Below, one piece after another: positions 13,220 through 63,898 of a stretch of DNA of 64,000 nucleotides. The DNA is from an uncultured bacterium (GTDB lineage: Bacteria > Fidelibacterota > Marinisomatia > Marinisomatales > JAHJCW01). How positions within the stretch are numbered: position 1 is the first letter of the stretch; every line of letters begins with the position of its first letter. Location: NCBI GenBank assembly GCA_964634215.1, contig CAZWKR010000006.1:15607-79606 (forward strand), given 5' to 3'. Both the position numbers and the translations under genes were made by a program. Under the pieces are notes generated by a model. That model was not told the origin of the DNA and ran no database searches. It worked only from the letters and a program-made list of their open reading frames with translations.

Positions 13220-13222
13220 GGA

Positions 13223-14308: not shown

Positions 14309-14332
14309 CTCTACCAACTGAGCTACAGAGCC
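14260..14332 (-). tRNA. tRNA-Phe (anticodon GAA), 73 nt, CCA not encoded
   Basis: Reverse complement is GGCTCTGTAGCTCAGTTGGTAGAGCAGAGGCCTGAAAAGCCTTGTGTCGGTGGTTCGATTCCGCCCGGAGCCA. It folds by hand into a 7-bp acceptor stem, GCTC/GAGC D stem, GAGGC/GCCTT anticodon stem with loop CTGAAAA, and GGTGG/CCGCC T stem with loop TTCGATT. Confidence 0.93.
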
Positions 14333-34656: not shown

Positions 34657-35015
34657 TACTCCACCTTTTGCATCTGCATTTTTATATCTAGGCTTAATCC
34701 AATTGATTATATAACCAACTGTTCCGCGATAAACTATTATCCGGATTACCTATTTATTATTCGGGAAGAAAGAAACGAAGGGAGGTAAAAAAATTTTGTA
34801 TTTTTAAAAATGTTTCAAATATCGGTAAAAAAAAATAAACTTATTAGTCCTTCAAGCCTTTCAAACCCTATTGAAAAGTACAAGCTATTGCGATTTTCTT
34901 CAAGAAAAATAATGGTTTTGTTTTGGTAGAGTATGATTAAATTCCTTTTAATATTTTGTCGTGATTTGCGCTTGATTGCTGCGACATTAAAAAAGAGCTA
35001 AAATGGCAAGAGATT

Positions 35016-35043
35016 GCCTCGTTTAGCGCGAGGTTTTTTTATT
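35016..35043 (+). promoter_or_regulatory. Terminator-like hairpin + T7 run in the metH leader (possible attenuator)
   Basis: CCTCG(35017-21)/CGAGG(35029-33) followed by TTTTTTT, ending 3 nt before the ATG at 35044. It shares C35017-C35018 with an upstream GGCAA-GAGA-TTGCC hairpin. Confidence 0.3.
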
Positions 35044-41277: not shown

Positions 41278-42483
41278 ATGACACATTCATTTATATCAGG
41301 TGCAAAAGGCGAAAAACCGCGTTCCGATCTCCGCGTAAAATATACACCATCAAATAAACCACTTTCGATTTCTGTTAAAAGCACTGTTGAAACATTTTTT
41401 GGCAAAGCAATTAAACAGCAAACTGTGAATATTTGTGAAGATTTACAAATTCATTTTGGTGCAATTGAGATCGAAGATTTTGGAGCTTTGCCATTTGTGA
41501 TTGCCGCCCGCTTAGAAGCGGCGATAAAACATGCACATCCGGATTTGCAGTTTGAATCTCTACCGCCGATGAAGGATTTTTGTATGTACCCGTCAAGCCG
41601 CGACCGTTTCCGCCGCAGTCGATTGTATTTACCGGGGAACCAATCCAAATTAATGCTAAATGCGGGTATTCATAAACCTGATGGTATAATACTTGATTTA
41701 GAAGATTCCGTTTCTTCATCGGAAAAAGAAGATACTAGATACATTGTACGTAACGCTCTTCGAACTTTGGACTTTTTTGGCGCTGAACGAATGGTACGAA
41801 TCAATCAAGGTGAATTAGGACTAAAGGATTTAGAATTTATTGTACCGCATAATGTGCATTTGATATTAATTCCTAAAGTTGAAAGTGCTGAAGAAATCAA
41901 AATAATTGATGAACGAATTTTAGAAATATCAAAAATATATGGTAGAAAAGAAACGGTATTTCTAATGCCGATCATTGAAAGTGGACGCGGTGTACTTAAA
42001 GCATTGGAAATTGCTGAATCGTCAAAAAACATTGTCGCGCTAGCGATTGGTTTGGAGGATTATACTGCCGATCTTGGAGTACCGCGGACGGAAAAAGGAA
42101 ATGAATCGTTTTTTGCGCGTAGCATGTTAGTAAATACGGCACGTGCAGCAGGTATTCAAGCAATAGACACAGTATATAGTGATGTAGGTAATGAAATCGG
42201 GTTACGTGATTCGGTTAGAGAAGCTAAGTCAATTGGATTCGATGGGAAAGGATGTATTCACCCTCGTCAAATAAAGCCAATTCACGAAGAGTTTGCTCCA
42301 TCAACAGATCAAATTGAAAAAGCAAAAAAAATTACTTTAGCATTTGATGAAGCTGAGAAAAAGGGACTTGGAGTTGTATCGCTTGGTAGTAAAATGATTG
42401 ATCCGCCCGTTGTAAAACGAGCATTGCATACTATTGATCTAGCAATTGCCTCGAATTTATTAAGTCCTGATTGGAAAAATTAA
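41278..42483 (+). CDS. citE: Fusion of citrate-lyase acyl-carrier (CitD, gamma) and citryl-ACP lyase (CitE, beta; HpcH/HpaI fold)
   Basis: Residues ~1-95 align by eye with CitD ('RSDLRV' at the prosthetic-group Ser position; 'DFGALPFVIAARLEAAI' versus CitD 'DKGALDCILRARLEAL'). The remainder carries CitE motifs 'RSRLYLPGN', 'DLEDSV', 'PKVES', 'IESG.G', 'GLEDYTADLG'. Confidence 0.8.
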   Translation: MTHSFISGAKGEKPRSDLRVKYTPSNKPLSISVKSTVETFFGKAIKQQTVNICEDLQIHFGAIEIEDFGALPFVIAARLEAAIKHAHPDLQFESLPPMKDFCMYPSSRDRFRRSRLYLPGNQSKLMLNAGIHKPDGIILDLEDSVSSSEKEDTRYIVRNALRTLDFFGAERMVRINQGELGLKDLEFIVPHNVHLILIPKVESAEEIKIIDERILEISKIYGRKETVFLMPIIESGRGVLKALEIAESSKNIVALAIGLEDYTADLGVPRTEKGNESFFARSMLVNTARAAGIQAIDTVYSDVGNEIGLRDSVREAKSIGFDGKGCIHPRQIKPIHEEFAPSTDQIEKAKKITLAFDEAEKKGLGVVSLGSKMIDPPVVKRALHTIDLAIASNLLSPDWKN

Positions 42484-42484
42484 T

Positions 42485-44047
42485 ATGACAAAAGTAAAAA
42501 TGATAAAAAATTTTGTTGATCGCATGATTCCAACTGTTGTCAACGGAGTAAAGCAAACGCCATTTCAGGGCGTTGGGAAATATACACCAAAAGGAAATAA
42601 GGCTGCTTTGCCAATTCGATCATGTTCGGGTTTCCCAACCGATGGAAATAAAACGGTAAAATCATTAAAGGATGCTTTGCAAAAATGTGGTTTGAAAGAT
42701 GGAATGACAATTTCGTCACATCATCACTTCCGTAACGGCGATTTGATAATGAATCAAGTTTTTGATATTGCCGCAAAACAAAAAATTAAAGGTTTGCGTT
42801 GGTTTCCATCAGCGGCGTTTCCTTGTCATAAACCGGTAATTGATCACATGAAAAATGGCGTTGTTGATTGGGTTGAGGGTTCGCTTAACGGTCCAATTGG
42901 TGATTATGCATCGCACGGAAATATGAAAGGTACAGCAGTACTACGAAGCCATGGTGGTCGCTGGCAAGCAGTTCAGGACGGAGAAGTGCATATAGATATT
43001 GCCGTAATTGCAGCGCCAACTGCTGATGCATTTGGCAACGCCACCGGCGATAGAGGCCCATCGGCTTGTGGATTGCTAGGATTTGGTTTAGTTGATTCAA
43101 TATATGCTGATAAAGTTATTGTCGTAACTGATAACCTTGTACAGTTTCCCTGTGTCCCTTGGCAAATCCAAGGTCAAAATATTGATTTTGTTGTAGTACT
43201 TGATAAAGTTGGTGAACCGGAAAAGATTGTGAGTGGCACAACTAAACTCACAAAATCACCGGATCGTTTATATATCGCTGAGTTAACCGCGAAATTTGTA
43301 CAAGCAGCAGGTATTATTAAAGACGGATTCAGTTTCCAGGCAGGAGCCGGCGGAACTGCCCTGGCATTTGCTATATTCCTAAAAGAAATGATGAAAGAAG
43401 CCGGCGTGAAAGCACGTTTCATCCGTGGTGGCTCAACAAAATATTTGGTGGAAATGTTGGAAGAAGGATTGACCGATTTTATATTGGACGGGCAAACCTT
43501 TGACTTAGAAGGCGTACGTTCAATGCGAGAAAATGCAGGTCACGTAAATACATCACCATTCACAAGTTATAATTGGCATGGAAAGGGAAATTTTGCTTCA
43601 ATGTTGGATGCTGTAGTACTAGGGGCAACTGAAGTTGATGTTAATTTCAATGCCAATGTTGTAACTCATTCCGATGGAAAAATGCTACACGGAATTGGAG
43701 GATGGCAAAATTGTTTGTTTAGTAAATGTACAATTTTGCCGATACCGGCATTTCGTAATCGTATTCCCGTAATTGTTGATGAAGTAACAACATTGGTTGG
43801 TCCCGGTGAATTAGTTGATGTTATAGTAACTGAACGTGGAATCGCAATCAATCCATTACGCAAAGATTTGATCAAAGCAACAAAAGATAGTGGCTTGCCA
43901 ATCAGAAAGATTGAAGAAATAAAGGCTGAAATTGATGATCTAATTGGTGGTGCGCCTGCAAAACCAAAACTAACAGATGACGTGATCGGAATAGTAAAAT
44001 GGGTTGATGGAACAGTTATTGATTCGATCTATAAAATTGAAGAATAA
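42485..44047 (+). CDS. citF: Citrate lyase alpha subunit (citrate CoA/ACP-transferase)
   Basis: 520 aa, starts 1 nt after citDE. 'ISSHHHFRNGD', 'GSLNGPIG', 'FQAGAGGTALA' typical of CitF. Confidence 0.82.
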   Translation: MTKVKMIKNFVDRMIPTVVNGVKQTPFQGVGKYTPKGNKAALPIRSCSGFPTDGNKTVKSLKDALQKCGLKDGMTISSHHHFRNGDLIMNQVFDIAAKQKIKGLRWFPSAAFPCHKPVIDHMKNGVVDWVEGSLNGPIGDYASHGNMKGTAVLRSHGGRWQAVQDGEVHIDIAVIAAPTADAFGNATGDRGPSACGLLGFGLVDSIYADKVIVVTDNLVQFPCVPWQIQGQNIDFVVVLDKVGEPEKIVSGTTKLTKSPDRLYIAELTAKFVQAAGIIKDGFSFQAGAGGTALAFAIFLKEMMKEAGVKARFIRGGSTKYLVEMLEEGLTDFILDGQTFDLEGVRSMRENAGHVNTSPFTSYNWHGKGNFASMLDAVVLGATEVDVNFNANVVTHSDGKMLHGIGGWQNCLFSKCTILPIPAFRNRIPVIVDEVTTLVGPGELVDVIVTERGIAINPLRKDLIKATKDSGLPIRKIEEIKAEIDDLIGGAPAKPKLTDDVIGIVKWVDGTVIDSIYKIEE

Positions 44048-44068
44048 TCAAAAATTATTGGAGGTATC

Positions 44069-44599
44069 TTGAATAAAGAAATTTTACAACTTTGGCCTGA
44101 AATTGGTTGGATTAACAATAAAGAATTAGCAGAAAAAACTGCTAATGCATGGGAGTATGCCATTGAAAAAAGTGTGTTATCTGCCGAAGATTTGGAGAAA
44201 ATACCATTTTCCTTACTTATTAAAGATTGTGATATAACATTTATGAATCACAAGCGCACTTGTGTTCAGCTATCTGTTGATATTGCTAAGCGCATGAAAG
44301 ATAATTTTGGTGATGAAATTGAAATTGATATGGATATTCTTATAGCCGGTGCAATCTTGATCGATATAGGAAAATTAATAGAATACGAAATTGTTGATGG
44401 AAAATTAGGAACAAGTAATTTTGGAACGATTGTTCGCCATCCATTTAGCGGTGTTGCTATAGCCGATAGATTTGATCTACCAGCGGAAGTTCAGCACATT
44501 ATTGGAACGCACTCTAAAGAGGGTGATCTAGGGAAACGAACAGTTGAGTCAATAATTGTTCACCACGCTGACTTTGTTTCTTTTGAACCATTTAAATAG
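44069..44599 (+). CDS. HD-domain phosphohydrolase-like protein
   Basis: TTG start after 'ggagg'. 'HKRTCVQLSVDIAK', 'ILIDIGK', 'HHADF' fit HD-superfamily His/Asp positions. Confidence 0.55.
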   Translation: MNKEILQLWPEIGWINNKELAEKTANAWEYAIEKSVLSAEDLEKIPFSLLIKDCDITFMNHKRTCVQLSVDIAKRMKDNFGDEIEIDMDILIAGAILIDIGKLIEYEIVDGKLGTSNFGTIVRHPFSGVAIADRFDLPAEVQHIIGTHSKEGDLGKRTVESIIVHHADFVSFEPFK

Positions 44600-44608
44600 A
44601 ATAAACAT

Positions 44609-46543
44609 ATGGCACAAAATTTAGTAGAAAAAATTGTACAGAAATATGCTATTGGTCTTAATAGCGAACAAAAAGTTCAAAGTGGAGATTATGTTACAAT
44701 ACAACCGGAACATATTTTAACGCACGATAACACTGGCGCTGTAATAGGTAAGTTCAAATCTATAGGTGCCACGAAAATGGCCAATCCACGGCAACCAATG
44801 TTTGCGCTAGATCACAATGTGCAGGATGAATCTGAAGCAAATTTAAAAAAGTACAAAGGTATTCAAGAATTTGCTACCGAGATGAATGTAGATTTTTATC
44901 CTGCAGGAAATGGAATTGGTCATCAAATAATGTTAGAACAAGGATATGCCTTTCCCGGAGAATTGGCGGTTGCATCTGATAGTCATTCTAATATGTACGG
45001 CGGAATAGGATGCCTTGGAACTCCTGTTGTACGAACCGATGCAGCCGGAATTTGGGCAACCGGTAAGACTTGGTGGCAGATTCCACCCGTTGCAAAAATT
45101 AAATTATACGGTAAATTATTAGATGGTGTCACCGGTAAAGATGTAATAATTACTTTAGCAGGTCATTTTAATAATGATGAAGTATTAAACCACGCCTTGG
45201 AGTTTAGCGGAGATGGAGTTTTATCTTTATCTATTGACGATCGACTTACAATCGCAAATATGACAACAGAATGGGGCGCTTTAGTTGGACTATTTCCAAT
45301 CAATGAAAAAGTAATTAGTTGGTTAAATAATCGATTGAACTATGTTAAAAATAATTTGCGGATTAGCGAAAAACGAATTCAGGCGTTGCAATCGGAGAAT
45401 CTTACAGCAGATAATGGTGCATATTATTCAAAAATTATATCAATTGATTTGAGCACAATTCGTCCTCACACAGCCGGACCTGACAATGTAAAAACAAAAA
45501 CTAATATTTCCGATATGGAAAAACAGAACATTAAAATTCATAAGGCATATTTGGTTTCTTGCGTAAATAGTCGTGTAGAAGATTTGGCTGCAGCGGCAAA
45601 AGTTTTGAAAGGCAAAAAGATTGCTGATGGCGTTGAGTTTTACATCGCTGCTGCGTCAAAGGAAGTGCAGACTGAAAGTGAAAAAAGAGGTGATTGGCAA
45701 ACACTTATTTCCGCCGGAGCGATTGAATTAGCAACGGGTTGTGGTCCCTGTATCGGGTTAGGTGTTGGACTGTTAGAGGATGGAGAAGTTGGAATCTCTG
45801 CAACAAATCGCAATTTTAAAGGACGAATGGGAAGTCCAAATGCGAAAGCATATTTAGCGTCGCCGGCGATAGTAGCGGCATCGGCTGTGGCAGGGAAAAT
45901 ATGTAGTCCTAAGGAATTTGATTCAGTTGAATTAAAAAGTACAATAAAAATTATGGCAAAAAAGGAAGCCGCTAAAACCGCAGTAAAACTATTAGATGGC
46001 TTTCCCAAAAATATCGTTGGAGAAATTATTTATTGTTATCAAGATAATATTAACACGGACGGAATTTTCCCCGGTAAATACACGTACATTGACGATTTTA
46101 CGCCATCGCAGCAAGCGGAAGTAGTGATGGAAAATTATGATACCAATTTTGGTAAGATTGTGAAAGATGGTGAGGTATTAGTTGGTGGATTCAATTTTGG
46201 CACAGGTAGTTCTCGTGAGCAGGCGGCAACTGCGCTTAAGTATAGTGGAATCCAATTAGTTATTGCAGGATCATTCAGCCAAACATATAAGCGCAACGCA
46301 ATTAACAACGGATTTGTTGTGATAGAATCACCGGAATTGATTATCGATCTACAGAAAAAATATAAATCAGAAATTGAATTAGACAAATTAACGATACAAA
46401 CAAAAATTGGGATAGAGATCAATTTTGAACAATCAATTATTAAGATGGATAATAACGAGTACAACATTGATCCAGTTGGAGCGGCTGCTCAAGAATTAGT
46501 TATAGAAGAAGGTTTAGAGAATTGGGTAAAAAATAGATTATAA
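44609..46543 (+). CDS. Aconitase-family hydro-lyase with fused large and swivel (small) domains; homoaconitase-like rather than AcnA/AcnB-like
   Basis: 'HILTHDNTG', 'GIGHQIMLEQGYAFPGELAVASDSHSNMYGG', Fe-S Cys contexts 'SCVNSR' and 'GCGPCIGLG', 'NRNFKGRMG'. C-terminal LeuD-like 'GGFNFGTGSSREQAA'. At 644 aa it is too short for AcnA/AcnB. Confidence 0.8.
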   Translation: MAQNLVEKIVQKYAIGLNSEQKVQSGDYVTIQPEHILTHDNTGAVIGKFKSIGATKMANPRQPMFALDHNVQDESEANLKKYKGIQEFATEMNVDFYPAGNGIGHQIMLEQGYAFPGELAVASDSHSNMYGGIGCLGTPVVRTDAAGIWATGKTWWQIPPVAKIKLYGKLLDGVTGKDVIITLAGHFNNDEVLNHALEFSGDGVLSLSIDDRLTIANMTTEWGALVGLFPINEKVISWLNNRLNYVKNNLRISEKRIQALQSENLTADNGAYYSKIISIDLSTIRPHTAGPDNVKTKTNISDMEKQNIKIHKAYLVSCVNSRVEDLAAAAKVLKGKKIADGVEFYIAAASKEVQTESEKRGDWQTLISAGAIELATGCGPCIGLGVGLLEDGEVGISATNRNFKGRMGSPNAKAYLASPAIVAASAVAGKICSPKEFDSVELKSTIKIMAKKEAAKTAVKLLDGFPKNIVGEIIYCYQDNINTDGIFPGKYTYIDDFTPSQQAEVVMENYDTNFGKIVKDGEVLVGGFNFGTGSSREQAATALKYSGIQLVIAGSFSQTYKRNAINNGFVVIESPELIIDLQKKYKSEIELDKLTIQTKIGIEINFEQSIIKMDNNEYNIDPVGAAAQELVIEEGLENWVKNRL

Positions 46544-46573
46544 TAAATATTTTAGAAAATTATAGGAGTTTAA

Positions 46574-47770
46574 ATGTCAAAACGAACGATTGTAGCATTA
46601 CCTGGAGATGGAATTGGAAAAACAGTTTTAGATGAGGCAATCCGCGTGCTTGATGCAGCGGGATTCGAAGCAAATTATGTTGAAGGTGATATAGGATGGG
46701 AGTTTTGGTGTTCGGAAGGTAATCCATTACCACAGAGAACATTAGATTTGTTAGCGGAACATAAGGTTGGTTTATTTGGTGCAATTACATCAAAACCAAA
46801 AGATGAGGCATTTGATGAACTAAATCCTGAATTACAAGCAAAAGGATTAGTTTATTCCAGTCCGATTGTTGGTTTGAGACAGCATTTTGGATTGGATATT
46901 TGTCTGCGTCCGTGCCGGACATATACAGGAAATCCACTAAATTTTATTAGAAGAGGAGTCGGTGATGTTGTCGATGAACCGGAAGTTGATGTTGCAATTT
47001 TCCGACAAAATACTGAAGGATTATATGGCGGAGTTGAATGGAGTAATCCACCAACTCAAGTATATGATGCGCTTATGACACATCCCAAATTCGTACAAAA
47101 TTTTGGTGATACTTCGGTTGATGAAATCTCTGTATCAACGAGGATTTTTACAAAAAAAGCTACCGAAAGAATTTTGCGCGCAGCATTTGAACACGCCAAG
47201 AAATATGGTTACAAATCGGTAACCGTTTGTGAAAAACCAAATGTGATAAGAGAAACATCCGGAATGATGTATAAAATGGCGCAGCAAATTCAGAAGACTG
47301 ATTTCCCTGAAATTGAATTATGGAATACAAATATTGATGCACAAATGATGTGGCTAACTAAAAATCCAGAAAATTATGGTGTTATTGTGGCAGGTAATAT
47401 GTTTGGTGACATCGTATCGGATGGATTTGCCGGGCTTATCGGTGGACTTGGATTTGCTTGTAGTGCACAGTATAATCCTGAAACGGGTATCGGTGTTTTT
47501 GAACCGACGCATGGCAGTGCCCCCAAATATGCAGATTATCCTGTTTCAATTGTAAATCCAATTGCCATGATAGAATCTGCATGTATGATGCTTGATTTTA
47601 TTGATGAACAAGATATCGCAAAAAAGATACGTAAAGCTGTAGCTGAAGTTGTAGCTGAAGGTAAAGTAAAAACTTATGATATGGCAAAAATGGCCGGCAG
47701 AGCTGATGTAGTAGAAAAGGGTGCTGTTTCAACAACTCAAATGGCAGATGCCATAATTGCAAAATTATAG
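46574..47770 (+). CDS. Beta-decarboxylating dehydrogenase of the isocitrate/isopropylmalate/homoisocitrate family
   Basis: 'IVALPGDGIGKTV', 'LFGAITS', 'GLRQHFGLDICLRPCR', 'FRQNTEGLYGG', 'GNMFGDIVSD', 'FEPTHGSAPK'. Confidence 0.8.
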   Translation: MSKRTIVALPGDGIGKTVLDEAIRVLDAAGFEANYVEGDIGWEFWCSEGNPLPQRTLDLLAEHKVGLFGAITSKPKDEAFDELNPELQAKGLVYSSPIVGLRQHFGLDICLRPCRTYTGNPLNFIRRGVGDVVDEPEVDVAIFRQNTEGLYGGVEWSNPPTQVYDALMTHPKFVQNFGDTSVDEISVSTRIFTKKATERILRAAFEHAKKYGYKSVTVCEKPNVIRETSGMMYKMAQQIQKTDFPEIELWNTNIDAQMMWLTKNPENYGVIVAGNMFGDIVSDGFAGLIGGLGFACSAQYNPETGIGVFEPTHGSAPKYADYPVSIVNPIAMIESACMMLDFIDEQDIAKKIRKAVAEVVAEGKVKTYDMAKMAGRADVVEKGAVSTTQMADAIIAKL

Positions 47771-47778
47771 GAATTAAA

Positions 47779-49215
47779 ATGGAAAAATCTATCGCAAGGC
47801 AAATTGCTGAATTTGCTGTAAATCTAAAATATAAAGATATTCCCGTTGAGGTAATTAATGAAGTAAAGCGGTACTTATATGATTCAATAGGATGTGCAAT
47901 TGGATCTGTTAATACTAAAGATGTAAACGCAATTCGTGATATTTACAAAGAAATGGGTGGTACAGAAGAGGCAACAACTTTTGTATTCGGTGACAAATTG
48001 CCAGCGGTAAATGCAACATTAATCAATTCACTAATGATACGAGCACTAGATTTTAATGATATTTATTGGAAAGAAGACCCGAGCCATCCATCAGATATTA
48101 TTCCGGCGGCATTGACAGTGGCTGAAAAAGTAAATGCATCTATGAAAGATGTAATTGTTGCAATCGTATTAGCATATGAGTTTGAACAACGATTATGTTT
48201 ATTTGCTAAACCTGGTGTCCGTGAGCGAAAATGGCACCATGCAACACTTACACAATTTGTGTCGCCAATAGTAGCGGGAAAAATATTAGGGCTTAATGTT
48301 GATGAAATGGTAAATGCTATCGGAATTTCTGGATGTCATAATCATACAATCGGTTGTCCGACTGCCGGTGTTTTAACTATGATGAAAAATACGGTTGACC
48401 CTATGGCAGTGCAATCAGGTGTATTGGCTGCCCTGATGGCTCAAAAAGGGTATTCTGGAACTGAAAAAGTTTTTGAGGGTAAAGAAGGATTCATGGACGC
48501 ATTTATTGGTTGGAATGCCAAAGACGAAGAGATAAATCCTACTGATATGGAAGGACGTGATGGAGTATCCTCTTGGGGGTGGGATATAAATGCATTAGTT
48601 GGTGATTTAGGCAAGAATTATAAAATCCTCGAATGTAGTATGAAAGCATTCCCAACCGAAGCATTAACGCATACACATATATCTTGTGTGTTGAAAATTA
48701 TGGTTAATAATAATTTAGAATATTCGGATATTGAAGAAGTTAAAGTAACTGCATTTGCTCAAGCGTATGATATATTATTTGATCCTACAAAGTACCGACC
48801 GGAATCAAGAGAAACTGCTGATCATTCACTTCCTTATTGCCTAGCAGCTGCTATGGTTGACAAAAAGATAACAACAGAATCGTTCTCTGATGAAAAATTA
48901 AATGATCTAAGGATATTTGAAGTGATCGATAAAATTAAAGGTGAACCTTCAATAGAATTTGAAAAGATGTTTCCGGCAAAGCAACCATCAAAAGTGGTGA
49001 TTACCACAAAGAATGGGGGAAAATATTCGGAATATCTTGAATATCCAAAGGGGGATCCTAGAGAACCAATGACAATGGAAGATTTGGAAAATAAATTTAA
49101 TTCATTAGCTTCCGATAAGTTTAATGATTCTGAATTGTTAGAATTAAAGGAGTTAATTTTTAATTGCGATGAGCACTCTGCACGAAACTTTATGAATAAA
49201 TTTGTAATAAAATGA
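47779..49215 (+). CDS. MmgE/PrpD-family protein (2-methylcitrate-dehydratase-like)
   Basis: N-terminus 'IAEFAVNLKYKDIPVEVINEVKRYLYDSIGCAIG' and 'ADHSLPYCLAAAM' are typical of the PrpD fold. Confidence 0.78.
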   Translation: MEKSIARQIAEFAVNLKYKDIPVEVINEVKRYLYDSIGCAIGSVNTKDVNAIRDIYKEMGGTEEATTFVFGDKLPAVNATLINSLMIRALDFNDIYWKEDPSHPSDIIPAALTVAEKVNASMKDVIVAIVLAYEFEQRLCLFAKPGVRERKWHHATLTQFVSPIVAGKILGLNVDEMVNAIGISGCHNHTIGCPTAGVLTMMKNTVDPMAVQSGVLAALMAQKGYSGTEKVFEGKEGFMDAFIGWNAKDEEINPTDMEGRDGVSSWGWDINALVGDLGKNYKILECSMKAFPTEALTHTHISCVLKIMVNNNLEYSDIEEVKVTAFAQAYDILFDPTKYRPESRETADHSLPYCLAAAMVDKKITTESFSDEKLNDLRIFEVIDKIKGEPSIEFEKMFPAKQPSKVVITTKNGGKYSEYLEYPKGDPREPMTMEDLENKFNSLASDKFNDSELLELKELIFNCDEHSARNFMNKFVIK

Positions 49216-50381
49216 AATATATTGGTCCCGACTTCTATAATATTACTGACCTTCTCACAGAAGAAGAATTAGCAATACAAAAGACCGCTTACGACTTTGT
49301 AAAAAATGAATTTATGTCGGTTATTCAGGAGCATTTTCGTGAAGGGACTTTTCCAACAAATATAATTCCAAGATTAGGTGAAATCGGTATTTTTGGCTCT
49401 ACTTTTCCGGAGGAATTTGGCGGAGCCGGTGTTAGTAATGTTGCGTATGGATTATTAATGCAGGAACTTGAAAGAGGCGATTCGGGTCTGCGTTCGTTCG
49501 CGAGCGTACAAGGTGGGTTGGTAATGTATCCGATGTTGAAATATGGTTCGAATGAGCAAAAGAAAAAATGGTTACCCAAACTTGCTAAAGGTGAAGCTGT
49601 TGGTTGCTTTGGTCTAACTGAACCGGAGTTTGGATCCAATCCCGGAGGAATGATAACACGAGCTAAACGTGATGGAGATAATTGGGTAATCAGTGGTAGC
49701 AAAATGTGGATCACTAATGGATCAATTGCCGATATTGCTATAGTTTGGGCGAAAGATGAAGGTGATATAATAAGAGGATTTATAGTACAACCAGACACTA
49801 AAGGTTTTTCTGCTCCCGAAATGCATGGGAAACTAAGTTTACGTGCATCGGTTACATCCGAATTGGTTTTAGACAATGTAATTATATCTGAAAATCAAAG
49901 ATTGCCAAATGCGGAAGGATTAAAAGCACCATTGTCTTGTTTATCGCAAGCGAGATATAGTATTGCTTGGGGGGCAATTGGTGCAGCAATCGATTGCTAT
50001 GAAACTGCATTAGATTATTCAAAGAATCGTAAACAGTTTTCTAAACCAATTGCAGGTTATCAATTAATTCAGAAAAAATTAGTCGATATGCTTGAGGAAA
50101 TAACCAAAGCTCAATTATTAGCTGTTCAATTAGGAAGATTAAAGGACCAAGGTGAGGCGAACTTTGCGCAAATATCAATGGCGAAACGGAATAATGTCGC
50201 TATGGCGAGGGATATCGCACGTAGTGCGCGAGAAATATTGGGAGCGAATGGCATTACGGATGATTATCCCATAATGCGGCATATCATGAATCTTGAATCA
50301 GTTTATACTTATGAGGGTACGCACGAAATGCATACATTGATAATGGGGAAAAATATAACCGGTTTAGATGCCATTGAATAA
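49212..50381 (+). CDS. gcdH: Acyl-CoA dehydrogenase, glutaryl-CoA dehydrogenase-like
   Basis: ATGA overlap with the PrpD-like gene. 'RSFASVQGGLVMYPMLKYGSNEQKKKWLPKLAKGEAVGCFGLTEPEFGSNPGGM', 'KMWITNGSIADIAIVWAK', 'YEGTHEMHTLIMG'. Confidence 0.8.
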   Translation: MKYIGPDFYNITDLLTEEELAIQKTAYDFVKNEFMSVIQEHFREGTFPTNIIPRLGEIGIFGSTFPEEFGGAGVSNVAYGLLMQELERGDSGLRSFASVQGGLVMYPMLKYGSNEQKKKWLPKLAKGEAVGCFGLTEPEFGSNPGGMITRAKRDGDNWVISGSKMWITNGSIADIAIVWAKDEGDIIRGFIVQPDTKGFSAPEMHGKLSLRASVTSELVLDNVIISENQRLPNAEGLKAPLSCLSQARYSIAWGAIGAAIDCYETALDYSKNRKQFSKPIAGYQLIQKKLVDMLEEITKAQLLAVQLGRLKDQGEANFAQISMAKRNNVAMARDIARSAREILGANGITDDYPIMRHIMNLESVYTYEGTHEMHTLIMGKNITGLDAIE

Positions 50382-53051: not shown

Positions 53052-54545
53052 TCAATTTTGATGATATTCACCGAATTCTTCACGCAGAATATCAGCGATT
53101 TCACCAAGTGTGCATTTATTCTTTACACAACTAATAATTTGTGGAAATAGGTTTTGTGTTGTTTGTGTCTTTGCTTTTAGAAGTTTTAGAGTTGTATTAA
53201 CGAGTTCAATATTTCTTCTGTTTTTAAATTGTTTTAGTGATTTCACTTGGTTTTTTGTTGATTTGATATCAATCTTTAATAATTCCGGTTTGACCGATTC
53301 TTGCTCAATTAATTTGTTCACACCAATTACAACATTTTCTTTCCTATCAACTGCTTTCTGATATTCGTAAGCACTTTTAACGATTTCAGTCTGTATCCAA
53401 CCACTTTCAATAGCAGCAACTGAGCCACCCATTTCATCAATTTGAGCAATAATTTGTTGAGCTTCATGTACTAGAGAATTAGTTAATTCTTCAACTACAT
53501 AACTTCCACCAAATGGATCTGGATAATTGGTTATGCCAGATTCATGCGCAATGACTTGCTGTGTCCTTAAAGCGAGTTTTACAGAATTGTCAGTTGGTAG
53601 GGCAAGTGCTTCATCTTTGCTATTGGTATGCAGTGACTGAGTACCTCCGCAAACTGCCGCCATTGCTTGAATAGTAGTCCTAACAATATTATTGTCAATT
53701 TGTTGAGCTGTTAGAGTAGAACCGCCTGTTTGTGTATGAAAACGGCAAAGTTGTGCTTTTGGATTAGTAACACTAAACCGATCCTTCATGATAGTTGCCC
53801 ACATGAAACGAGCTGCACGGAATTTGGCAATTTCTTCTAAAAATCCATTGTGTGTGTTAAAGAAAAATGACAACCGCTCTCCAAATGTATTAACGTCCAA
53901 TCCGGTTTCAATAGCGGATTGTACATAAGCAATACCGTTTGCTAGTGTAAAAGCTATTTCTTGTGCCGCTGTGCTCCCAGCTTCTCTTATATGGTATCCG
54001 GAAATAGATATCGTATTCCATTTTGGCAAATTGTTTGCACAATAATCGAAAATATCTGTAATAAGTTTCATAGACGGTTTTGGTGGAAAAATGTAAGTTC
54101 CTCGAGCGACATATTCTTTTAATATATCGTTTTGAATTGTTCCTCGTAAATTGTTGGTTGAGATACCTTTTTTTTCCGCTACGGCGATATACATTGCCAA
54201 TAAAATAATAGCAGTAGAATTAATGGTCATTGAAGTGGATATTTTATCGAGAGGGATTTCATTAAATAACCGTTCCATATCTGCAATTGAAGATATGGGT
54301 ACACCTACTCTACCTACCTCTCCTTCTGCCATTGGATGGTCGGAATCGTATCCAATTTGTGTTGGTAGATCAAATGCAACTGAAAGGCCGGTTACACCCT
54401 CATCTAATAAATAACGATACCGTCTATTTGATTCATCGGCTGAGGTATATCCTGCATATTGCCGCATAGTCCATAAGCGTTTTTTGTACATATCGGGATA
54501 AATCCCGCGAGTGAATGGAAATTCACCGGGTTTCAGGTACTTCAT
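53052..54545 (-). CDS. Methylmalonyl-CoA mutase family, catalytic (TIM-barrel) subunit only
   Basis: '[25 protein letters not shown]', '[17 protein letters not shown]', '[11 protein letters not shown]', '[19 protein letters not shown]'. No DxHxxG B12-binding domain in the ORF. Confidence 0.88.
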
Positions 54546-58161: not shown

Positions 58162-58941
58162 ATGAAGATAGGTGTATTAGTCAAACAGGTAGCAGGAAGT
58201 GAATCACCTTTACGAATCGATTCTGCTGAAAAGTGGGTAGAAGAGGGGTCAATTGATTTTACTACAAACGAAAGTGATTCCTATGCATTAGAAGAGGCTT
58301 TACAGATTGTTGAACGTTCTGGTGGAGAAGGAGAAGTCGTGGTTATTAGTATGGGACCGGCTGAACGCACCCCTAAAATAATAAGGGAAGCGTTAGCAAA
58401 GGGCGGTCACCGGGCTATTCATATACAAGAAGAAGCTCCTTATGAAACAGATCCATATATGATTGCAAGTATTATTACTGAAGCTGTGAAAGATGAATCG
58501 TTTGATTTGATTCTGTCCGGTTTGCAATCCGATGATTTAGGTTCGGGGCAAACTGGTGTAATCTTGGGTGAATTACTTGGAATGTCCACTGCTACGCTAG
58601 TAATGGGTGTAGAGTTACAGGATGGTAAATTACGTGTTAAGCGCGAACTTGAATCAGGTTGGTTCCAATGGGTTACATTGCCATTCCCCGCTTGTATTAC
58701 AATTCAATCTGGTTTGAATCAGCCGCGATATCCATCGCTTAAAGGAATAATGGGCGCTAAAAAGAAAGAAATAAAATCTATCGTTAAAAGTGATGTAATT
58801 GGAAGCGTAGCGCCGATGCAAGATTTATCAACAATGTATTTACACAAAGCAGAAAAACGAACTGAAATGATTGAAGGTTCCACTGATCAAGTTGTAGATC
58901 GATTGGTCGATATTTTTAAAAAAGATATTAAAGCTATATAA
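58162..58941 (+). CDS. etfB: Electron transfer flavoprotein beta subunit
   Basis: 'MKIGVLVKQV', 'VISMGP', 'ILSGLQSDD', 'PRYPSLKGIMGAKKK'. Confidence 0.9.
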   Translation: MKIGVLVKQVAGSESPLRIDSAEKWVEEGSIDFTTNESDSYALEEALQIVERSGGEGEVVVISMGPAERTPKIIREALAKGGHRAIHIQEEAPYETDPYMIASIITEAVKDESFDLILSGLQSDDLGSGQTGVILGELLGMSTATLVMGVELQDGKLRVKRELESGWFQWVTLPFPACITIQSGLNQPRYPSLKGIMGAKKKEIKSIVKSDVIGSVAPMQDLSTMYLHKAEKRTEMIEGSTDQVVDRLVDIFKKDIKAI

Positions 58942-58950
58942 GGAGTTGCA

Positions 58951-59919
58951 ATGGATATTTTAGTAATTCTCGAAGGGGCAAACGGAGCAATTCATCGTAT
59001 TAGTAAAGAAGCTGTTACAGCTGCTCAAGCTTTTGGAAAGGAATTAAATCAAAAAGTCAGTGTGTTGGCATTTGGCAAAGATTCAGATAATCTTTCCAAA
59101 GAAGCAACAAATTTTAATATTGATGAAGTTTTACTCGTTAAAGACGATAATCTAAATACTTATTCTGCAGATGCATACGCAGAAACTATAAAGCAGGTTG
59201 TCGAAAAGGAATCACCTAAATTTGCAATAATGGGTTATTCATATTTAGTTCGCGATTTTTTTCCGAAAGTGAGTGCACGTCTTAAAAAACCTTTAATTAC
59301 TGATGTGGTCGGATACAAAACAGTTGGTGGTAAAACATTGTTCACAAAACAAGTGATACATGGGAAACTAACCGTTGATATCGAATCAAAAGTTGAAGGA
59401 CCTGTTTTAATAGGATTTCAATCTGCTGCATATTCAGCAGATAATCTTGAAAATGGTTCAGCAGAAGTGCGTACAGTTGAGGTAACATTAGATCCCTCCC
59501 AATTAAAAACGACTTCAGAAGAACCATTCCAAGAAGAGTCGGGTGGAGTAGATTTAACTGCGGCTGACAAGATAATATCAATTGGCAGAGGTATTGGTAA
59601 AGAAGAAAATATGCCACTGGTTAATGATTTAGCAGCTGTTCTAAAAGCTGAAATCGGTGCTTCACGACCGATAGTTGATTCAGGTTGGTTGCCAAATTCT
59701 CATCAGGTTGGTAGTTCTGGTCAGAGTGTAACACCCAATTTATACTTAGCATTGGGTATATCAGGAGCAATTCAACATGTTGTTGGAATGAAAGGTTCAA
59801 AAAATATTGTTGCAATTAATCGTGATTCCGACGCTCCAATATTTGAAGTAGCTGATTATGGTATTGTTGGTGATATTTTGGAAATCGTACCAAAACTAAC
59901 AGAAGCCCTAAAGGTTTAG
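58951..59919 (+). CDS. etfA: Electron transfer flavoprotein alpha subunit
   Basis: 'IISIGRGIG', 'ASRPIVDSGW', 'QVGSSGQSVTPNLYLALGISGAIQH', 'IVAINRDSDAPIFEVADYGIVGD'. Confidence 0.9.
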   Translation: MDILVILEGANGAIHRISKEAVTAAQAFGKELNQKVSVLAFGKDSDNLSKEATNFNIDEVLLVKDDNLNTYSADAYAETIKQVVEKESPKFAIMGYSYLVRDFFPKVSARLKKPLITDVVGYKTVGGKTLFTKQVIHGKLTVDIESKVEGPVLIGFQSAAYSADNLENGSAEVRTVEVTLDPSQLKTTSEEPFQEESGGVDLTAADKIISIGRGIGKEENMPLVNDLAAVLKAEIGASRPIVDSGWLPNSHQVGSSGQSVTPNLYLALGISGAIQHVVGMKGSKNIVAINRDSDAPIFEVADYGIVGDILEIVPKLTEALKV

Positions 59920-60003: not shown

Positions 60004-62010
60004 GTGGAGACATTACACCACATTCCGATTGTATTTTATTTATTAGCATTAATTGCGGTAGTCATTTTTATTTATAATCTTCGGAGATTTCTTGCGGTAC
60101 GCATTGGAAAAAAAGATCCTGATTATAAAATTAAAATATTTCCTGTGATCATAAATTTGATTTATTATGGAATTCTGCAACGCAGAGTATTTCGCTTAAA
60201 ATTCTCTTTTGCAGCGGCAATGCATTTTTTAATTGGATTTGGATTTTTTATATTATTATATGCAACTGCGGTAGGTACGTTTGTATCAAAAGGTTGGTTT
60301 GTTAATTACTTACCACATCTAGATACTCCTTGGTTTGCAGCTTTGAATGATACCGGTGGATTGATGGTATTTATTGGGATATTGATGGCTTTGTACCGCA
60401 GACATTTCAATAAGCCAAAATCATTACCACAAGATACTTTCAAAGGTCGGAGTAATCTTTTCGGTGATACAGGAATTTTACTGATTATTATACTACTAGT
60501 TATCGGTGGATACTTAGCTGAAGCAGCAAGATTAGCAATCCAATCACCGGATACTGCACAATATTCATGGATCGGCTATCCCATATCAAAACTATTTTCG
60601 GTTGAGTTTTGGAATACCACCGAACGATTTCTGTGGTGGAGCCATGGGATACTATCATTAATGGCGATCGCTATTATTCCTAATACCAAGATATTTCATA
60701 CAATTGCTTCAACAATAAACATTGCGCTTACCGACCGCGATTTACGTGGTAAAGTAAAACCGATGTTTGTAAGCAAACTGATGGAAGATCCTGATATGGA
60801 TCCGGACAAGATATCTTTGGGATCAACGAAATTGGAAGATTTTACGCAGAAGCAATTGTTAGATAGTATAGCATGTACAGAATGTGGTCGCTGTACGAAT
60901 GTTTGCCCAGCTTATATTACGGATAAACCTCTTTCGCCGATGAAGATTATTACCGATATGCGACAAGAGTTGTATGATAAATATTTAAATAAAAAGGATG
61001 TTGAGGGTATCGTTGGAAATACAATTACTGAAACAGAATTGTGGTCATGTACTACTTGTGGCGCATGTATGGAAGAATGTCCCGTTCTAATAAACCACAT
61101 ACCAACGTTTACTGATATGAGACGATATTTGGTATTATCTGAGGGGAAACCTCATCCACAAGCTGCCGAGAGTTTAGAAAAAACTATGAATACCGGTAAT
61201 CCTTGGGGATTTTCTAAAAGTGAACGTACAAAATGGGCAACTGATGCAGGGATAGAGTTACCGTTAATGTCCGAGAAAAAAGAAGCTGATATACTCTATT
61301 GGGTTGGATGTGCCGGGTCATATGATCCACGCAATCAAAAAGTCGCTAAAGCGATGGTAAAAATATTGGAAACAGCAAACGTTGATTACGCTGTATTGGG
61401 TAATGAGGAATCTTGCACGGGCGATTCGGCAAGACGCTTAGGTGAAGAATATCTTTTTGAAACCATGGCATTGCAAAATATTGAGATGTTCAATAAATAT
61501 AAATTCAATAAAATAATAACTCCATGTCCCCATTGTTTCCATACCATTGGAAATGAATATAGTGATTTTGATGGAAATTATGAAGTTCAACATCATTCAC
61601 AATTTATTATGGAATTGGTTGAAAGTGGCAAATTGAAATTGAAAAAGAATATTGACGAAAAGGTTACATACCATGATGCTTGTTATTTAGGACGTCATAA
61701 TGGTGAGTACGATGCTCCACGAAATGTGATTGATTCTGTTGTTAAGGACGGTCAATTGATTGAGATGGATAGGAATAAGGCGAATAGTTTTTGCTGTGGT
61801 GCAGGTGGTGGGAATATGTGGTATGACATTGAAGATGGAGAAAGAATTAATTCTGTTAGATTTCAGGAAGCAATTGATACGGGTGTAGATGTTGTTGCAA
61901 CAGCATGTTCGTTCTGTACCATAATGTTGGATGATGCAATGAAAATAAAAGGTAAAGAGGATTCTATGCAGGTATTAGATATTGCCGAAATGGTTGCAAT
62001 TGCATTGTAA
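60004..62010 (+). CDS. Membrane-bound Fe-S oxidoreductase (N-terminal multi-TM domain + 2x[4Fe-4S] + two CCG domains; HdrD/GlpC/DsrK-like, ETF-associated type)
   Basis: GTG start after 'aggaggga'. About 5-6 TM helices. 'CTECGRCTNVCP' and 'CTTCGACMEECP'. CCG motifs 'WVGCAGSYD','PCPHCFH','YHDACYLGRH','SFCCGAGGG'. Confidence 0.8.
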   Translation: METLHHIPIVFYLLALIAVVIFIYNLRRFLAVRIGKKDPDYKIKIFPVIINLIYYGILQRRVFRLKFSFAAAMHFLIGFGFFILLYATAVGTFVSKGWFVNYLPHLDTPWFAALNDTGGLMVFIGILMALYRRHFNKPKSLPQDTFKGRSNLFGDTGILLIIILLVIGGYLAEAARLAIQSPDTAQYSWIGYPISKLFSVEFWNTTERFLWWSHGILSLMAIAIIPNTKIFHTIASTINIALTDRDLRGKVKPMFVSKLMEDPDMDPDKISLGSTKLEDFTQKQLLDSIACTECGRCTNVCPAYITDKPLSPMKIITDMRQELYDKYLNKKDVEGIVGNTITETELWSCTTCGACMEECPVLINHIPTFTDMRRYLVLSEGKPHPQAAESLEKTMNTGNPWGFSKSERTKWATDAGIELPLMSEKKEADILYWVGCAGSYDPRNQKVAKAMVKILETANVDYAVLGNEESCTGDSARRLGEEYLFETMALQNIEMFNKYKFNKIITPCPHCFHTIGNEYSDFDGNYEVQHHSQFIMELVESGKLKLKKNIDEKVTYHDACYLGRHNGEYDAPRNVIDSVVKDGQLIEMDRNKANSFCCGAGGGNMWYDIEDGERINSVRFQEAIDTGVDVVATACSFCTIMLDDAMKIKGKEDSMQVLDIAEMVAIAL

Positions 62011-62146: not shown

Positions 62147-63898
62147 ATGGCAAATCATTTTTATCTTCCGTTTGAACGAAAAGGCAAAATGGACTATCAT
62201 CAACTTGATGAATATGAAAAATATCAATTATCATTCCACCCCGAAAGACCAAAATATTTAGATTATTTAGAAATATTTACTGAGCCGGAACTTTGTTTTA
62301 GAAGTAGTGATTTTGGCGCTTGTTTGATTCAGACCCATAGAGCCACATTAGAAATTGAAGATGAACAAATACCTGTCATGTTAATTGGACAACAGACCGG
62401 ACCTACGTCTGATTATAAAGAATTAACAAAAGTAATGCGTAATAATGATGAAATGCGTAAATGGAATGATGGAATGCCAACTCCCGCTTCTTACGAGCGT
62501 GCTATTAAGGCAATTGATGTAGCCAATAAGGAAGATCGTATAATAATTATTTTTGTTGATACTCCTGGAGCAGATCCAACTGAAGCGTCTGAAGCGGGTG
62601 GAATCGCTTGGCGTATAGGTGATACTATTCACGCTTTAGCAGAAGCTACAGTGGCAACCATTTCTGTAATAATGAATCGTGCGTGTAGCGGTGGTGCCAT
62701 TGCATTAACTGGCTGTGATTTAACATTAGCAATGGAGAATTCAACATACTTAGTAATAACGCCAGAGGCATGTTCATCAATTTTGTATCACACACGGAGC
62801 AGAGCAAATGAGGCAGCATCAGCTTCACGAATTACTTCGAAAGAAGGTTTTGATTTAGGCATTGTTGACATTATCGTGCCTGAACCAGAAGGGCCAGCCC
62901 ATAGATTTAAAGAACAGACAATCGCTTCATTGCATTTACACATTGAAAAAGCAATTACAAAATTACAAGCCATTTCTAAGGGAAAGCTATTGTCGAACAG
63001 AATAGATAGATGGTCAAAAATTGGTCATTGGTCAGAGACAACAATTGAACAAGTTAATTCTATTCAAAGAAAAGTATCACGTTTACCGGTACCAAATAAT
63101 GATGGTTATTTGAAACGACACAAAGGTTGTTATACAAAAAATGGGGTTCATAAATATGACCCGCTTCGATTTGATAAGTTAAAAAATGATGGATTTGTCT
63201 GTGATGTTTGCGGTTATCGTTACACGCGACCTTCAATATGGGATTGTATGGATAATTTATTTGATGAAAGATCATTTTCTGAACATACAGAGACTAAATT
63301 GATTGTAGATAAGGATATTTTGGGATTTCCTGAATATAAAGAAAAATTACTAAATACTCAAAAAAGAACCGGTTTGATGACTTCGATGATCACGTGTGAT
63401 GCCAAGATAAAGGGGCAAGATATTGTTTTTTGCGGCGCTGATTTCGGTTTTTTTGGTGCTTCATTTTGTATGAGTACTGGTGAGAAAATATGGCGAGCTG
63501 CTGAAATTGCTATTAAGAATAAAAAACCGATGATATTACAAGCAGCTGGCGGTGGAGCACGCATGCATGAAGGATGCTCGTCTATGGTTAGTATCCCTAA
63601 AGCACATGTTGCCCTGACGCGTGTTGAACAAGCCGGCATACCGGTAATTACTATTATTACAGATCCAACCTTAGGGGGTGTTGCTATTGGTTATGGTTCA
63701 CGCGGTATTAGATTATTTCAGAAGCACGCAGGAAATATCGGATTTTCTGGCAGGCGAGTAATTGAACAGTATACTGGCAAAAAGACATCCAAAGATTTTC
63801 AAACAACACCGTGGTTAAAAAAACACGGACACGTAGACCATATTGTTACTCAGGAAAATGTCAGAAAAGAAATAATCAATATTTTACAGAAAGATTAA
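62147..63898 (+). CDS. Fused carboxyltransferase: AccA-like (alpha) N-terminal half + AccD-like (beta, with Cys-rich zinc-ribbon remnant) C-terminal half
   Basis: Alpha half: 'HPERPKYLDY','FVDTPGADP','CSGGAIAL','STYLVITPEACSSILY','IVPEPEGPAH'. Beta half: 'VCDVCGYRYTRPS','GADFGFFGASFCMSTGEKI','QAAGGGARMHEG','TDPTLGGVAIGY'. Confidence 0.75.
   Translation: MANHFYLPFERKGKMDYHQLDEYEKYQLSFHPERPKYLDYLEIFTEPELCFRSSDFGACLIQTHRATLEIEDEQIPVMLIGQQTGPTSDYKELTKVMRNNDEMRKWNDGMPTPASYERAIKAIDVANKEDRIIIIFVDTPGADPTEASEAGGIAWRIGDTIHALAEATVATISVIMNRACSGGAIALTGCDLTLAMENSTYLVITPEACSSILYHTRSRANEAASASRITSKEGFDLGIVDIIVPEPEGPAHRFKEQTIASLHLHIEKAITKLQAISKGKLLSNRIDRWSKIGHWSETTIEQVNSIQRKVSRLPVPNNDGYLKRHKGCYTKNGVHKYDPLRFDKLKNDGFVCDVCGYRYTRPSIWDCMDNLFDERSFSEHTETKLIVDKDILGFPEYKEKLLNTQKRTGLMTSMITCDAKIKGQDIVFCGADFGFFGASFCMSTGEKIWRAAEIAIKNKKPMILQAAGGGARMHEGCSSMVSIPKAHVALTRVEQAGIPVITIITDPTLGGVAIGYGSRGIRLFQKHAGNIGFSGRRVIEQYTGKKTSKDFQTTPWLKKHGHVDHIVTQENVRKEIINILQKD

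Follow-up and report, generated by a model that had tools for sequence, protein, structure and literature searches.

The 64,000-nucleotide stretch of DNA analysed here (the window; contig CAZWKR010000006.1) comes from an uncultured bacterium of the Marinimicrobia (SAR406/Neomarinimicrobiota), as homologues of its PrpD-like protein indicate. It contains an operon-like run of genes for a citrate-lyase-like unit (citDE and citF), a small HD-fold protein (HD), a fused aconitase-family enzyme (acn), a beta-decarboxylating dehydrogenase (idh), an MmgE/PrpD-superfamily protein (prpD) and a glutaryl-CoA dehydrogenase (gcdh). We put the chances at about even that these genes encode the homocitrate-to-2-oxoadipate enzymes of the alpha-aminoadipate (AAA) pathway to lysine, joined to a lyase/HD unit which probably acts on the same C7 acid. 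The middle genes would mostly belong to an already known pathway. Three features appear to be unreported: a PrpD-like protein which may be a dehydratase, the conserved linkage with genes for an acyl carrier protein (ACP) type lyase, and the HD family.

The product of acn is assigned as a homoaconitase and that of idh as a homoisocitrate dehydrogenase (HICDH) because of a match to a curated homoaconitase model, a substrate-binding loop, the presence of separate tricarboxylic acid (TCA) cycle enzymes in a relative, and the composition of the lysine gene clusters of related bacteria. The fused enzyme passes the TIGR00139 'homoaconitase' equivalog, which represents the fungal Lys4 type (824.8 bits; cut-off 529.9). 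It lies below the cut-off of every aconitase, AcnB, LeuC/LeuD and methanogen HacA/HacB equivalog in NCBIfam. The enzyme has the SCVNSR and CGPCIGLG motifs, whose three cysteines bind the 4Fe-4S cluster, and at least 95% of 55 orthologs keep them. In the small domain, the loop reads PGKYTY (PGKYTYIDD), compared with PGPYLRT (PGPYLRTTD, 2pkp) in methanogen HacB and ARYLVY in isopropylmalate isomerase. Judging from its family, acn would hydrate cis-homoaconitate to homoisocitrate.

The best NCBIfam matches of the dehydrogenase are AksF2 (249 bits, cut-off 540) and AksF (235 bits, cut-off 500), both of which are homoisocitrate dehydrogenases. Global similarity fails to separate isocitrate dehydrogenase (IDH), HICDH and 3-isopropylmalate dehydrogenase (IPMDH), and the substrate loop is thus the main evidence for the assignment; overall similarity and a small Iso_dh tree were both dropped as classifiers because they were not decisive. 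In alignments with proteins from the PDB, the loop (YSSPIVGLR) closely resembles that of Schizosaccharomyces pombe HICDH (3ty3, YSSPIVALR). The corresponding loop is FFGAIRYLR in Thermus HICDH (3asj) and S113-L-N115-VALR in E. coli IDH. Relative to E. coli IDH, the residues Ser113, Arg119, Arg129, Arg153 and Tyr160 are kept, and Asn115, a ligand of the gamma-carboxylate, is replaced by Ile. It should be noted that the best PDB match for the loop segment, 1grp, is an E. coli IDH variant entry with Leu in place of the Asn found in the remaining entries for E. coli IDH. The loop suggests that idh decarboxylates homoisocitrate oxidatively to 2-oxoadipate. Both loops (KYTY in acn and SPIV in idh) are also found in orthologs of about 50% identity from Atribacteria and another lineage, which argues for one shared substrate.

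Homoaconitases of fungi and Thermus catalyse only the interconversion of cis-homoaconitate and homoisocitrate, and PrpD is the dehydratase counterpart for methylcitrate (PMC3556520). A second enzyme is therefore required for the dehydration of homocitrate. Aconitase fills this role in fungi; for the bacterial AAA pathway, that of Thermus included, we know of no report which identifies the homocitrate-dehydrating enzyme. The prpD product carries both the N- and C-terminal MmgE_PrpD domains (Pfam). It falls far below the three PrpD equivalogs (83.4 bits against a cut-off of 950, 82.9 against 575 and 59 against 458), and so by its sequence is a member of the MmgE/PrpD superfamily and not PrpD proper. 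The nearest solved structures are cis-aconitate decarboxylases, at 88 bits only. Asp93, His103, His159 and Lys207 of these decarboxylases are kept, and Thr97 is replaced by Ile. Across the phyla which have the cluster the PrpD-like protein is 70-84% identical; outside this clade identity is at most 54%, and the gene contexts of three distant representatives (P0121, P0123 and P0126) are uninformative. From its position, and by analogy with PrpD, we infer that it is a homocitrate dehydratase. As the neighbour of a Lys4-type homoaconitase, it is a concrete and testable candidate for the missing enzyme.

Related bacteria offer context for this assignment. In Melioribacter roseus, the corresponding cluster is annotated as 'MmgE/PrpD' (MROS_2219), 'homoaconitase' (MROS_2220) and '3-isopropylmalate dehydrogenase' (MROS_2223), and an aconitate hydratase (MROS_1507), an NADP-dependent IDH (MROS_1410) and leuCD (MROS_0233/0234) are encoded elsewhere (PMC5492636). 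The cluster was accordingly dropped as the sole source of TCA cycle aconitase and IDH. A leucine/isoleucine pathway was also dropped: M. roseus has separate leu genes, and Ignavibacterium album, which lacks lysC, asd, dapABD and all leu/ilv genes, has none but retains the cluster. The M. roseus genes MROS_0161-0166 encode ArgD/B/C-like proteins, a 'lysine biosynthesis enzyme LysX' and a synthase of the LeuA/homocitrate synthase family (PMC5492636). On a Melioribacter-like contig (L096), genes for LysW, an HMGL-like/HCS_D2 protein, LysX, LysY and LysZ stand in a row, without an aconitase or Iso_dh gene. This LysW-homocitrate synthase-LysX-LysY-LysZ set occurs twice in inverted orientation on the contig (2649-8355 and 10206-14251) with many frameshifted open reading frames (ORFs), and the duplication is probably an artefact of long-read assembly. 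Caldithrix abyssi has a LysWXZYJ+Hcs locus, with other pathway genes 'scattered' and some 'in the TCA cycle ... loci' (PMC5317091). No homocitrate synthase or LysW/X/Z/Y/J/K gene was found within the 64-kb window. When a 48-residue M. roseus LysX query, rebuilt from proteomic peptides, was compared with Marinimicrobia, three fragments only were recovered; a paper on genome evolution in Marinimicrobia does not mention lysine or citrate. The preliminary description of the window had favoured a homocitrate/2-oxoadipate module as a possible novel pathway. Its chemistry is supported by the homoaconitase equivalog, the HICDH-like loop, the separate TCA cycle enzymes and the LysW clusters from which both enzymes are absent. 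The idea of a new catabolic pathway is not.

Conservation was assessed by mapping the window proteins onto 80 related loci from a genome scan, 43 of which have full 10-kb flanks. In 34 of the 43, the core six genes (citDE, citF, HD, acn, idh and prpD) all lie on one strand, with a median span of 10.2 kb. The core genes recur across Marinimicrobia, Ignavibacteria/Melioribacteraceae and Calditrichota, with altered gene order. The order in Ignavibacteria/Melioribacteraceae, where citDE and citF are present, is idh-HD-acn-prpD-citDE-citF. The only Calditrichota locus (L014) has citF on the opposite strand upstream, followed by HD-idh-prpD, and no acn or citDE match. An arrangement which is reordered between phyla and still found together is more than a chance association. 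A literature search found no paper which treats the cluster as a unit, in line with the preliminary description, whose author did not know the combination as a described pathway. Six genes thus make up the core module, and gcdh is a neighbour confined to one lineage. Genes for a PF05635 '23S rRNA intervening sequence protein' interrupt the Ignavibacteria/Melioribacter cluster at varying points and are present in 35 of the 80 loci (e.g. L058 7460-7828 and L012 13478-13864). In I. album, a CstA transporter gene lies between idh and HD.

ACP-type citrate lyase has alpha, beta and ACP (gamma) components, and all three are recognisable in the window. The citDE product consists of an N-terminal ACP domain (residues 1-95, approximately) and a C-terminal beta domain, a C-C lyase for citryl-/acyl-thioesters (residues 110-393; Pfam HpcH_HpaI). 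The CitD domain scores 55.8 bits against the Pfam ACP model and 41.9 bits against TIGR01608 (citD; cut-off 63.5), and the CitE domain is below the citE equivalog TIGR01588 (277.8 bits against 443.4). The prosthetic-group serine (Ser16, in an 'RSD' motif) is present in all 20 of the orthologs inspected from 57 aligned. CitF scores 454 bits against the Pfam CitF model and passes TIGR01584 (citF) marginally, with 509.3 bits against 501.45; its orthologs in the related loci are 53-87% identical. The accessory genes citC, citG and citX were found neither among the neighbours in the window nor within 10 kb of the I. album and M. roseus loci.

The I. album ortholog of citDE, IALB_1147, has been described as a CitE-CitD fusion, and the I. 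album genes were published as an ATP-independent citrate lyase with a suggested role in citrate fermentation or an unconventional reverse TCA (rTCA) cycle (PMC3362086). The Marinimicrobia paper of Hawley et al. likewise uses 'citrate lyase' for an rTCA variant. The conserved partners of this 'citrate lyase' in Ignavibacteria and Marinimicrobia are probably lysine-pathway enzymes, however, and not enzymes of the TCA cycle; this would correct a recurring habit of annotation.

The HD gene belongs to the conserved core and is present in 61 loci. In the window protein ('LIDIGK'), Ile stands in place of the dyad His. Most of the FCB-group orthologs inspected share this substitution (LIDxGK), and two of 13 aligned sequences have Ala (LAD). 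Apart from position 98 (Ile), the dyad Asp99 and its neighbouring residues are invariant in this 13-sequence alignment. Homologues from other phyla have LHDIGK. The AlphaFold model (pLDDT 93.5) clearly matches just one known fold, the generic HD domain of YhaM. Members of the family (about 175 residues) are also found in Bathyarchaeia, Thermoplasmatota, WOR-3, KSB1, Calditrichaceae and Atribacteria (loci L083, L085, L089-L092 and L094).

Gene neighbours of the HD family outside the core clade vary in the type of lyase. Thermoplasmatota have HD-CitF-citryl-CoA-lyase-like, and another archaeon has HD-CitD/E. One further locus has citryl-CoA-lyase-like-HD-Iso_dh-PrpD, flanked by CitF and an aminotransferase. 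In Bathyarchaeia two PrpD-like genes and HacAB are found with two HD genes and a gene of the ICL/PEP-mutase family. The Atribacteria loci (L089/L090, 6268-11518) read GntR-AtuA-DUF4387-HD-HacA-like-HacB-like-Iso_dh; AtuA/DUF4387 takes the place of the citrate-lyase genes there, which hints at an acetate-releasing or acetate-condensing C-C lyase for the same acid. With 38-53% identity, the proteins of these modules are orthologs of their counterparts in the window. Sequence comparison thus points to a widespread and undescribed module centred on the HD protein, in which a C-C lyase is coupled to enzymes of the homoaconitase and HICDH types. Among uncultured bacteria and archaea, the small HD family is often associated with C-C lyases for tricarboxylates.

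In the proposed scheme, the PrpD-like protein would dehydrate homocitrate to cis-homoaconitate, the Lys4-type fused homoaconitase would convert cis-homoaconitate to homoisocitrate, as its family membership suggests, and the Iso_dh enzyme, judged by its specificity loop, would yield 2-oxoadipate. Homocitrate synthase and the LysW/X/Z/Y/J steps would be encoded away from the operon, as in the relatives. CitD-E and CitF, with the HD protein, would most likely act on the same C7 pool (homocitrate <-> 2-oxoglutarate + acetate), where the lyase may be either a reverse, catabolic exit or an entry which is independent of acetyl-CoA. Glutaryl-CoA dehydrogenase, an add-on in Marinimicrobia only, would oxidise glutaryl-CoA derived from 2-oxoadipate.

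Several observations weigh against this interpretation. CitF passes a citrate-lyase equivalog, and the substrate may simply be citrate. Without regulation, homocitrate lyase and homocitrate synthase activities in one cell would run as a futile cycle, and the stereochemistry of citrate (pro-3S)-lyase would predict (S)-homocitrate and not the biosynthetic (R) form. The determinant YLRT of methanogen homoaconitase includes an Arg which has no counterpart in the KYTY loop of acn. The dehydrogenase passes none of the Iso_dh-family equivalogs in NCBIfam, IDH models included. It is about equidistant from NAD-dependent IDH, HICDH and IPMDH, with all reference classes near 30% identity (S. pombe HICDH, 31%), and IPMDH also has hydrophobic residues at the loop positions in question. 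No lysine riboswitch was found upstream of the operon with Rfam. Expression in M. roseus speaks for the scheme, in that MROS_2219, MROS_2220 and MROS_2223 appear in each of three replicates grown by maltose fermentation and in none grown aerobically on acetate; against this, the proteome is that of a membrane fraction, and many cytosolic biosynthetic enzymes have the same on/off pattern (PMC5492636).

Two functions may simply be co-located. CitD-E and CitF, with the HD protein, would then be a true citrate lyase (citrate -> oxaloacetate + acetate), and only the homoaconitase, the HICDH and the PrpD-like protein would serve the AAA pathway; the genes would travel together for shared regulation, for example during anaerobic growth, and not for a common substrate. 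This is the main rival, although unlikely in our estimation. The citF score and the conserved serine fit it, as do the annotation of an ATP-independent citrate lyase in I. album, with a putative citrate transporter elsewhere in that genome (PMC3362086), the presence of homocitrate synthase in the Lys clusters of relatives, and the archaea in which HD and lyase genes occur without aconitase or Iso_dh genes. However, CitE and CitD are well short of their equivalog cut-offs, and citC, citG and citX are missing from the 10 kb around the genes, both here and in I. album. Linkage of the lyase to the homoaconitase, HICDH and PrpD-like genes has also outlasted a full reshuffling of gene order between phyla, and it recurs with non-homologous lyase types (citryl-CoA lyase with CitF, and AtuA/DUF4387) in other lineages. 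If all enzymes instead acted on C6 acids, the operon would be a second aconitase/IDH set with a citrate lyase, running from 2-oxoglutarate through isocitrate and citrate to oxaloacetate and acetate in an unconventional rTCA cycle or in glutamate/citrate fermentation; the opposite direction could make 2-oxoglutarate. The genes do cover each of these steps, an rTCA variant which relies on this lyase is invoked both in the I. album paper and by Hawley et al., idh retains Ser113 and every catalytic Arg and Tyr of E. coli IDH, and PrpD enzymes are able to dehydrate citrate (description of NCBIfam NF006943). Nevertheless we regard it as quite improbable: acn passes the homoaconitase equivalog and fails the aconitase ones, the Asn115 of IDH is Ile in a loop like that of fungal HICDH, M. 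roseus encodes canonical aconitase and NADP-dependent IDH elsewhere, and citrate needs no split into dehydratase and hydratase (PMC3556520). The citrate-fermentation/TCA reading raised in the preliminary description is disfavoured by the same HMM (hidden Markov model) result, Asn115 replacement and separate M. roseus enzymes, but keeps some probability for the lyase itself.

Citramalate lyases are relatives of the ACP-type CitDEF, and the substrate could be a substituted citrate or malate of another kind, for instance 2-methylcitrate, citramalate/methylmalate or an acid like isopropylmalate, in a methylcitrate-type pathway or one which changes 2-oxoacid chain length, unrelated to lysine. Membership of the PrpD superfamily would agree with this, as would the hydrophobic Ile and Val of the idh loop, which IPMDH shares, and the Bathyarchaeia locus with PrpD-like, HacAB-like, HD and ICL/PEP-mutase-family genes. 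We hold it to be very unlikely, as every PrpD and LeuB/LeuC/LeuD equivalog fails, leuCD is separate in M. roseus, I. album keeps the cluster without leucine/isoleucine genes, and the polar KYTY loop and Lys4-type HMM match suggest a tricarboxylate with a distal carboxylate. A methylcitrate-type variant, considered in the preliminary description, is disfavoured by the failure of the PrpD equivalogs, again with some probability left for the lyase itself. Least weight of all, close to none, is given to the PrpD-like protein as an enzyme of the cis-aconitate-decarboxylase type in an operon which makes or uses itaconate-like acids. The four conserved residues shared with those decarboxylases, its nearest solved structures, and a 154-bit match of the CitE domain to the itaconate-degradation lyase RipC are set against the low similarity (88 bits), the replacement of Thr97 and the lack of genes for an itaconate CoA-transferase or an itaconate hydratase; nor would this reading account for the homoaconitase and Iso_dh genes which are conserved beside it.

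The homocitrate-to-2-oxoadipate assignment can be extended further, although we consider the extension doubtful: CitD-E/CitF, the HD protein and the PrpD-like protein could together feed the 2-oxoacid elongation series, or drain it, with no need for CoA or ATP. In the manner of citrate (pro-3S)-lyase, acetyl-S-ACP would add to the si face of 2-oxoglutarate and yield (S)-homocitrate, or this acid would be cleaved. The PrpD-like protein would turn (S)-homocitrate into the cis-homoaconitate used by the Lys4-type enzyme, in the way that PrpD rescues si-type methylcitrate. If true, the forward direction would be an acetate-driven bypass of homocitrate synthase. Run backwards with reductive carboxylation, it would convert lysine-derived 2-oxoadipate to 2-oxoglutarate and acetate, a redox-cheap route for peptide-fermenting bacteria and archaea. 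In that case, the association of the HD family with three unrelated lyase types (CitDEF, CitF with citryl-CoA lyase, and AtuA/DUF4387) would be the sign of a pathway which is widespread and has not been described.

Glutaryl-CoA dehydrogenase (GCDH) is the seventh gene product in the window. It scores 489 bits against the Thermus enzyme (2eba), 393 bits against the human enzyme and 393-430 bits against other solved GCDHs; other acyl-CoA dehydrogenases reach at most 255 bits. The gene overlaps prpD by 4 nucleotides (nt). It is found in only four of the 80 related loci, all from Marinimicrobia, and was dropped as a core member for this reason; the GCDH gene of M. roseus (MROS_2438) is far from the cluster. 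The operon link to glutaryl-CoA oxidation which had been suggested is weak on these grounds. The etfB/etfA genes for electron transfer flavoprotein (ETF; 58162-59919, + strand) and a gene for a 668-residue CCG/4Fe-4S oxidoreductase (60004-62010, + strand) are present downstream, as had been described. The oxidoreductase sits after etfB and etfA in the position of an ETF:quinone oxidoreductase. Electrons from GCDH could plausibly pass to etfBA and the Fe-S oxidoreductase. The ETF genes are set apart from the operon by unrelated genes of either strand, and the ETF link, like that of gcdh, is not conserved.

The features of the operon are listed in Table 1. All seven ORFs are found on the + strand at exactly the coordinates first reported, and all family calls are upheld by Pfam and NCBIfam, with gcdh as an acyl-CoA dehydrogenase whose best solved relatives are GCDHs. 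The spacers, in gene order, are 1, 21, 9, 30, 8 and -4 nt, within the range of -4 to 30 nt claimed for them. The packed co-directional string is longer, with 12 genes from metH (35014) to a CDF transporter gene (end 51563), and its widest gap (88 nt) lies just 5' of citDE. Because the string extends beyond the seven genes in a compact genome, short spacers alone do not delimit the operon. Promoter and terminator scans of the operon region gave no signal above that of shuffled sequence.

Table 1. Genes of the operon and their coordinates in the window
Gene	Product	Coordinates	Strand	Basis
citDE	CitD-CitE fusion	41278-42483	+	Pfam/NCBIfam
citF	CitF-like alpha subunit, acetyl-ACP:tricarboxylate ACP-transferase	42485-44047	+	Pfam/NCBIfam
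HD	176-aa HD/HDIG-fold protein	44069-44599	+	HDIG domain
acn	644-aa fused Aconitase + Aconitase_C, putative homoaconitase	44609-46543	+	Pfam/NCBIfam
idh	Beta-decarboxylating dehydrogenase, putative homoisocitrate dehydrogenase	46574-47770	+	Pfam Iso_dh
prpD	MmgE/PrpD-superfamily protein, candidate homocitrate (or related tricarboxylate) dehydratase	47779-49215	+	Pfam
gcdh	Glutaryl-CoA dehydrogenase	49212-50381	+	Similarity to solved GCDHs

Other features of the window are as follows. A SAM_alpha (SAM-II type) riboswitch (34948-35022, + strand; Rfam score 41.9 bits, gathering score 36) lies directly 5' of metH, which encodes a B12-dependent methionine synthase. The riboswitch overlaps the mechanically called TTG start of metH (35014), and the true start is probably further downstream. 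Four genes on the + strand (9962-14023) encode a 336-residue ORF without a Pfam match, a 4Fe-4S protein, a protein like the D component of 2-hydroxyglutaryl-CoA dehydratase (HGD-D, 309 bits) and an ATPase activator of the BcrAD/BadFG type; this run resembles a radical 2-hydroxyacyl-CoA dehydratase system and is found downstream of a TonB-dependent receptor gene. A 2103-residue SprA-like type IX secretion/gliding protein (15132-21443, + strand) fits an organism of the FCB group, and a tRNA gene (14260-14332, - strand) lies just upstream. The 497-residue methylmalonyl-CoA mutase (53052-54545, - strand) has the catalytic N-terminal domain only, with no B12-binding domain in the same ORF. The carboxyltransferase of acetyl-CoA carboxylase is encoded as a single 583-residue fusion, AccA (alpha) followed by AccD (beta), at 62147-63898 on the + strand.

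Each part of the operon can be compared with a known system. The lyase genes share with CitDEF of Klebsiella pneumoniae and E. coli the alpha, beta and ACP components and the conserved prosthetic-group serine. They differ in the fusion of CitD to CitE, in CitE and CitD scores well under the curated cut-offs, and in the HD protein which adjoins them in place of citC, citG and citX; their genomic partners suggest C7 and not C6 acids. The methylcitrate cycle (PrpC, PrpD and aconitase) likewise divides isomerisation between two enzymes, a dehydratase of the PrpD family and a hydratase of the aconitase family which is limited to an 'isocitrate mode'. The next step in the operon is a beta-decarboxylating dehydrogenase, however, and not methylisocitrate lyase, and the PrpD equivalogs fail. 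Glutaryl-CoA dehydrogenase of lysine/tryptophan catabolism is highly similar to the window enzyme, and ETF and a membrane Fe-S oxidoreductase are encoded 8-10 kb downstream in the window; linkage to the cluster is found only in some Marinimicrobia, and the association is not conserved.

In the methanogen Aks system (AksA, AksD-E or HacAB, and AksF), AksF models are the top NCBIfam matches of the window dehydrogenase. The hydro-lyase of the window is fused and of the Lys4 type, unlike the split HacA/HacB, and the YLRT of HacB corresponds to YTYI. The orthologous HD-linked modules of Atribacteria do use split HacA/HacB-like subunits, which almost reach the HacA cut-off. The closest counterpart is the front half of the AAA lysine pathway of Thermus thermophilus and fungi: the fused hydro-lyase fits the fungal Lys4 model and the dehydrogenase has the fungal HICDH loop. 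The abundant SAR406 bacteria of the ocean thus probably use a fungal-type homoaconitase and HICDH. The arrangement differs in that the window genes lie beside lyase, HD and PrpD-like genes and not beside hcs or lysX. Whereas fungi use aconitase for the dehydration of homocitrate, the candidate in the window is an enzyme of the PrpD superfamily.

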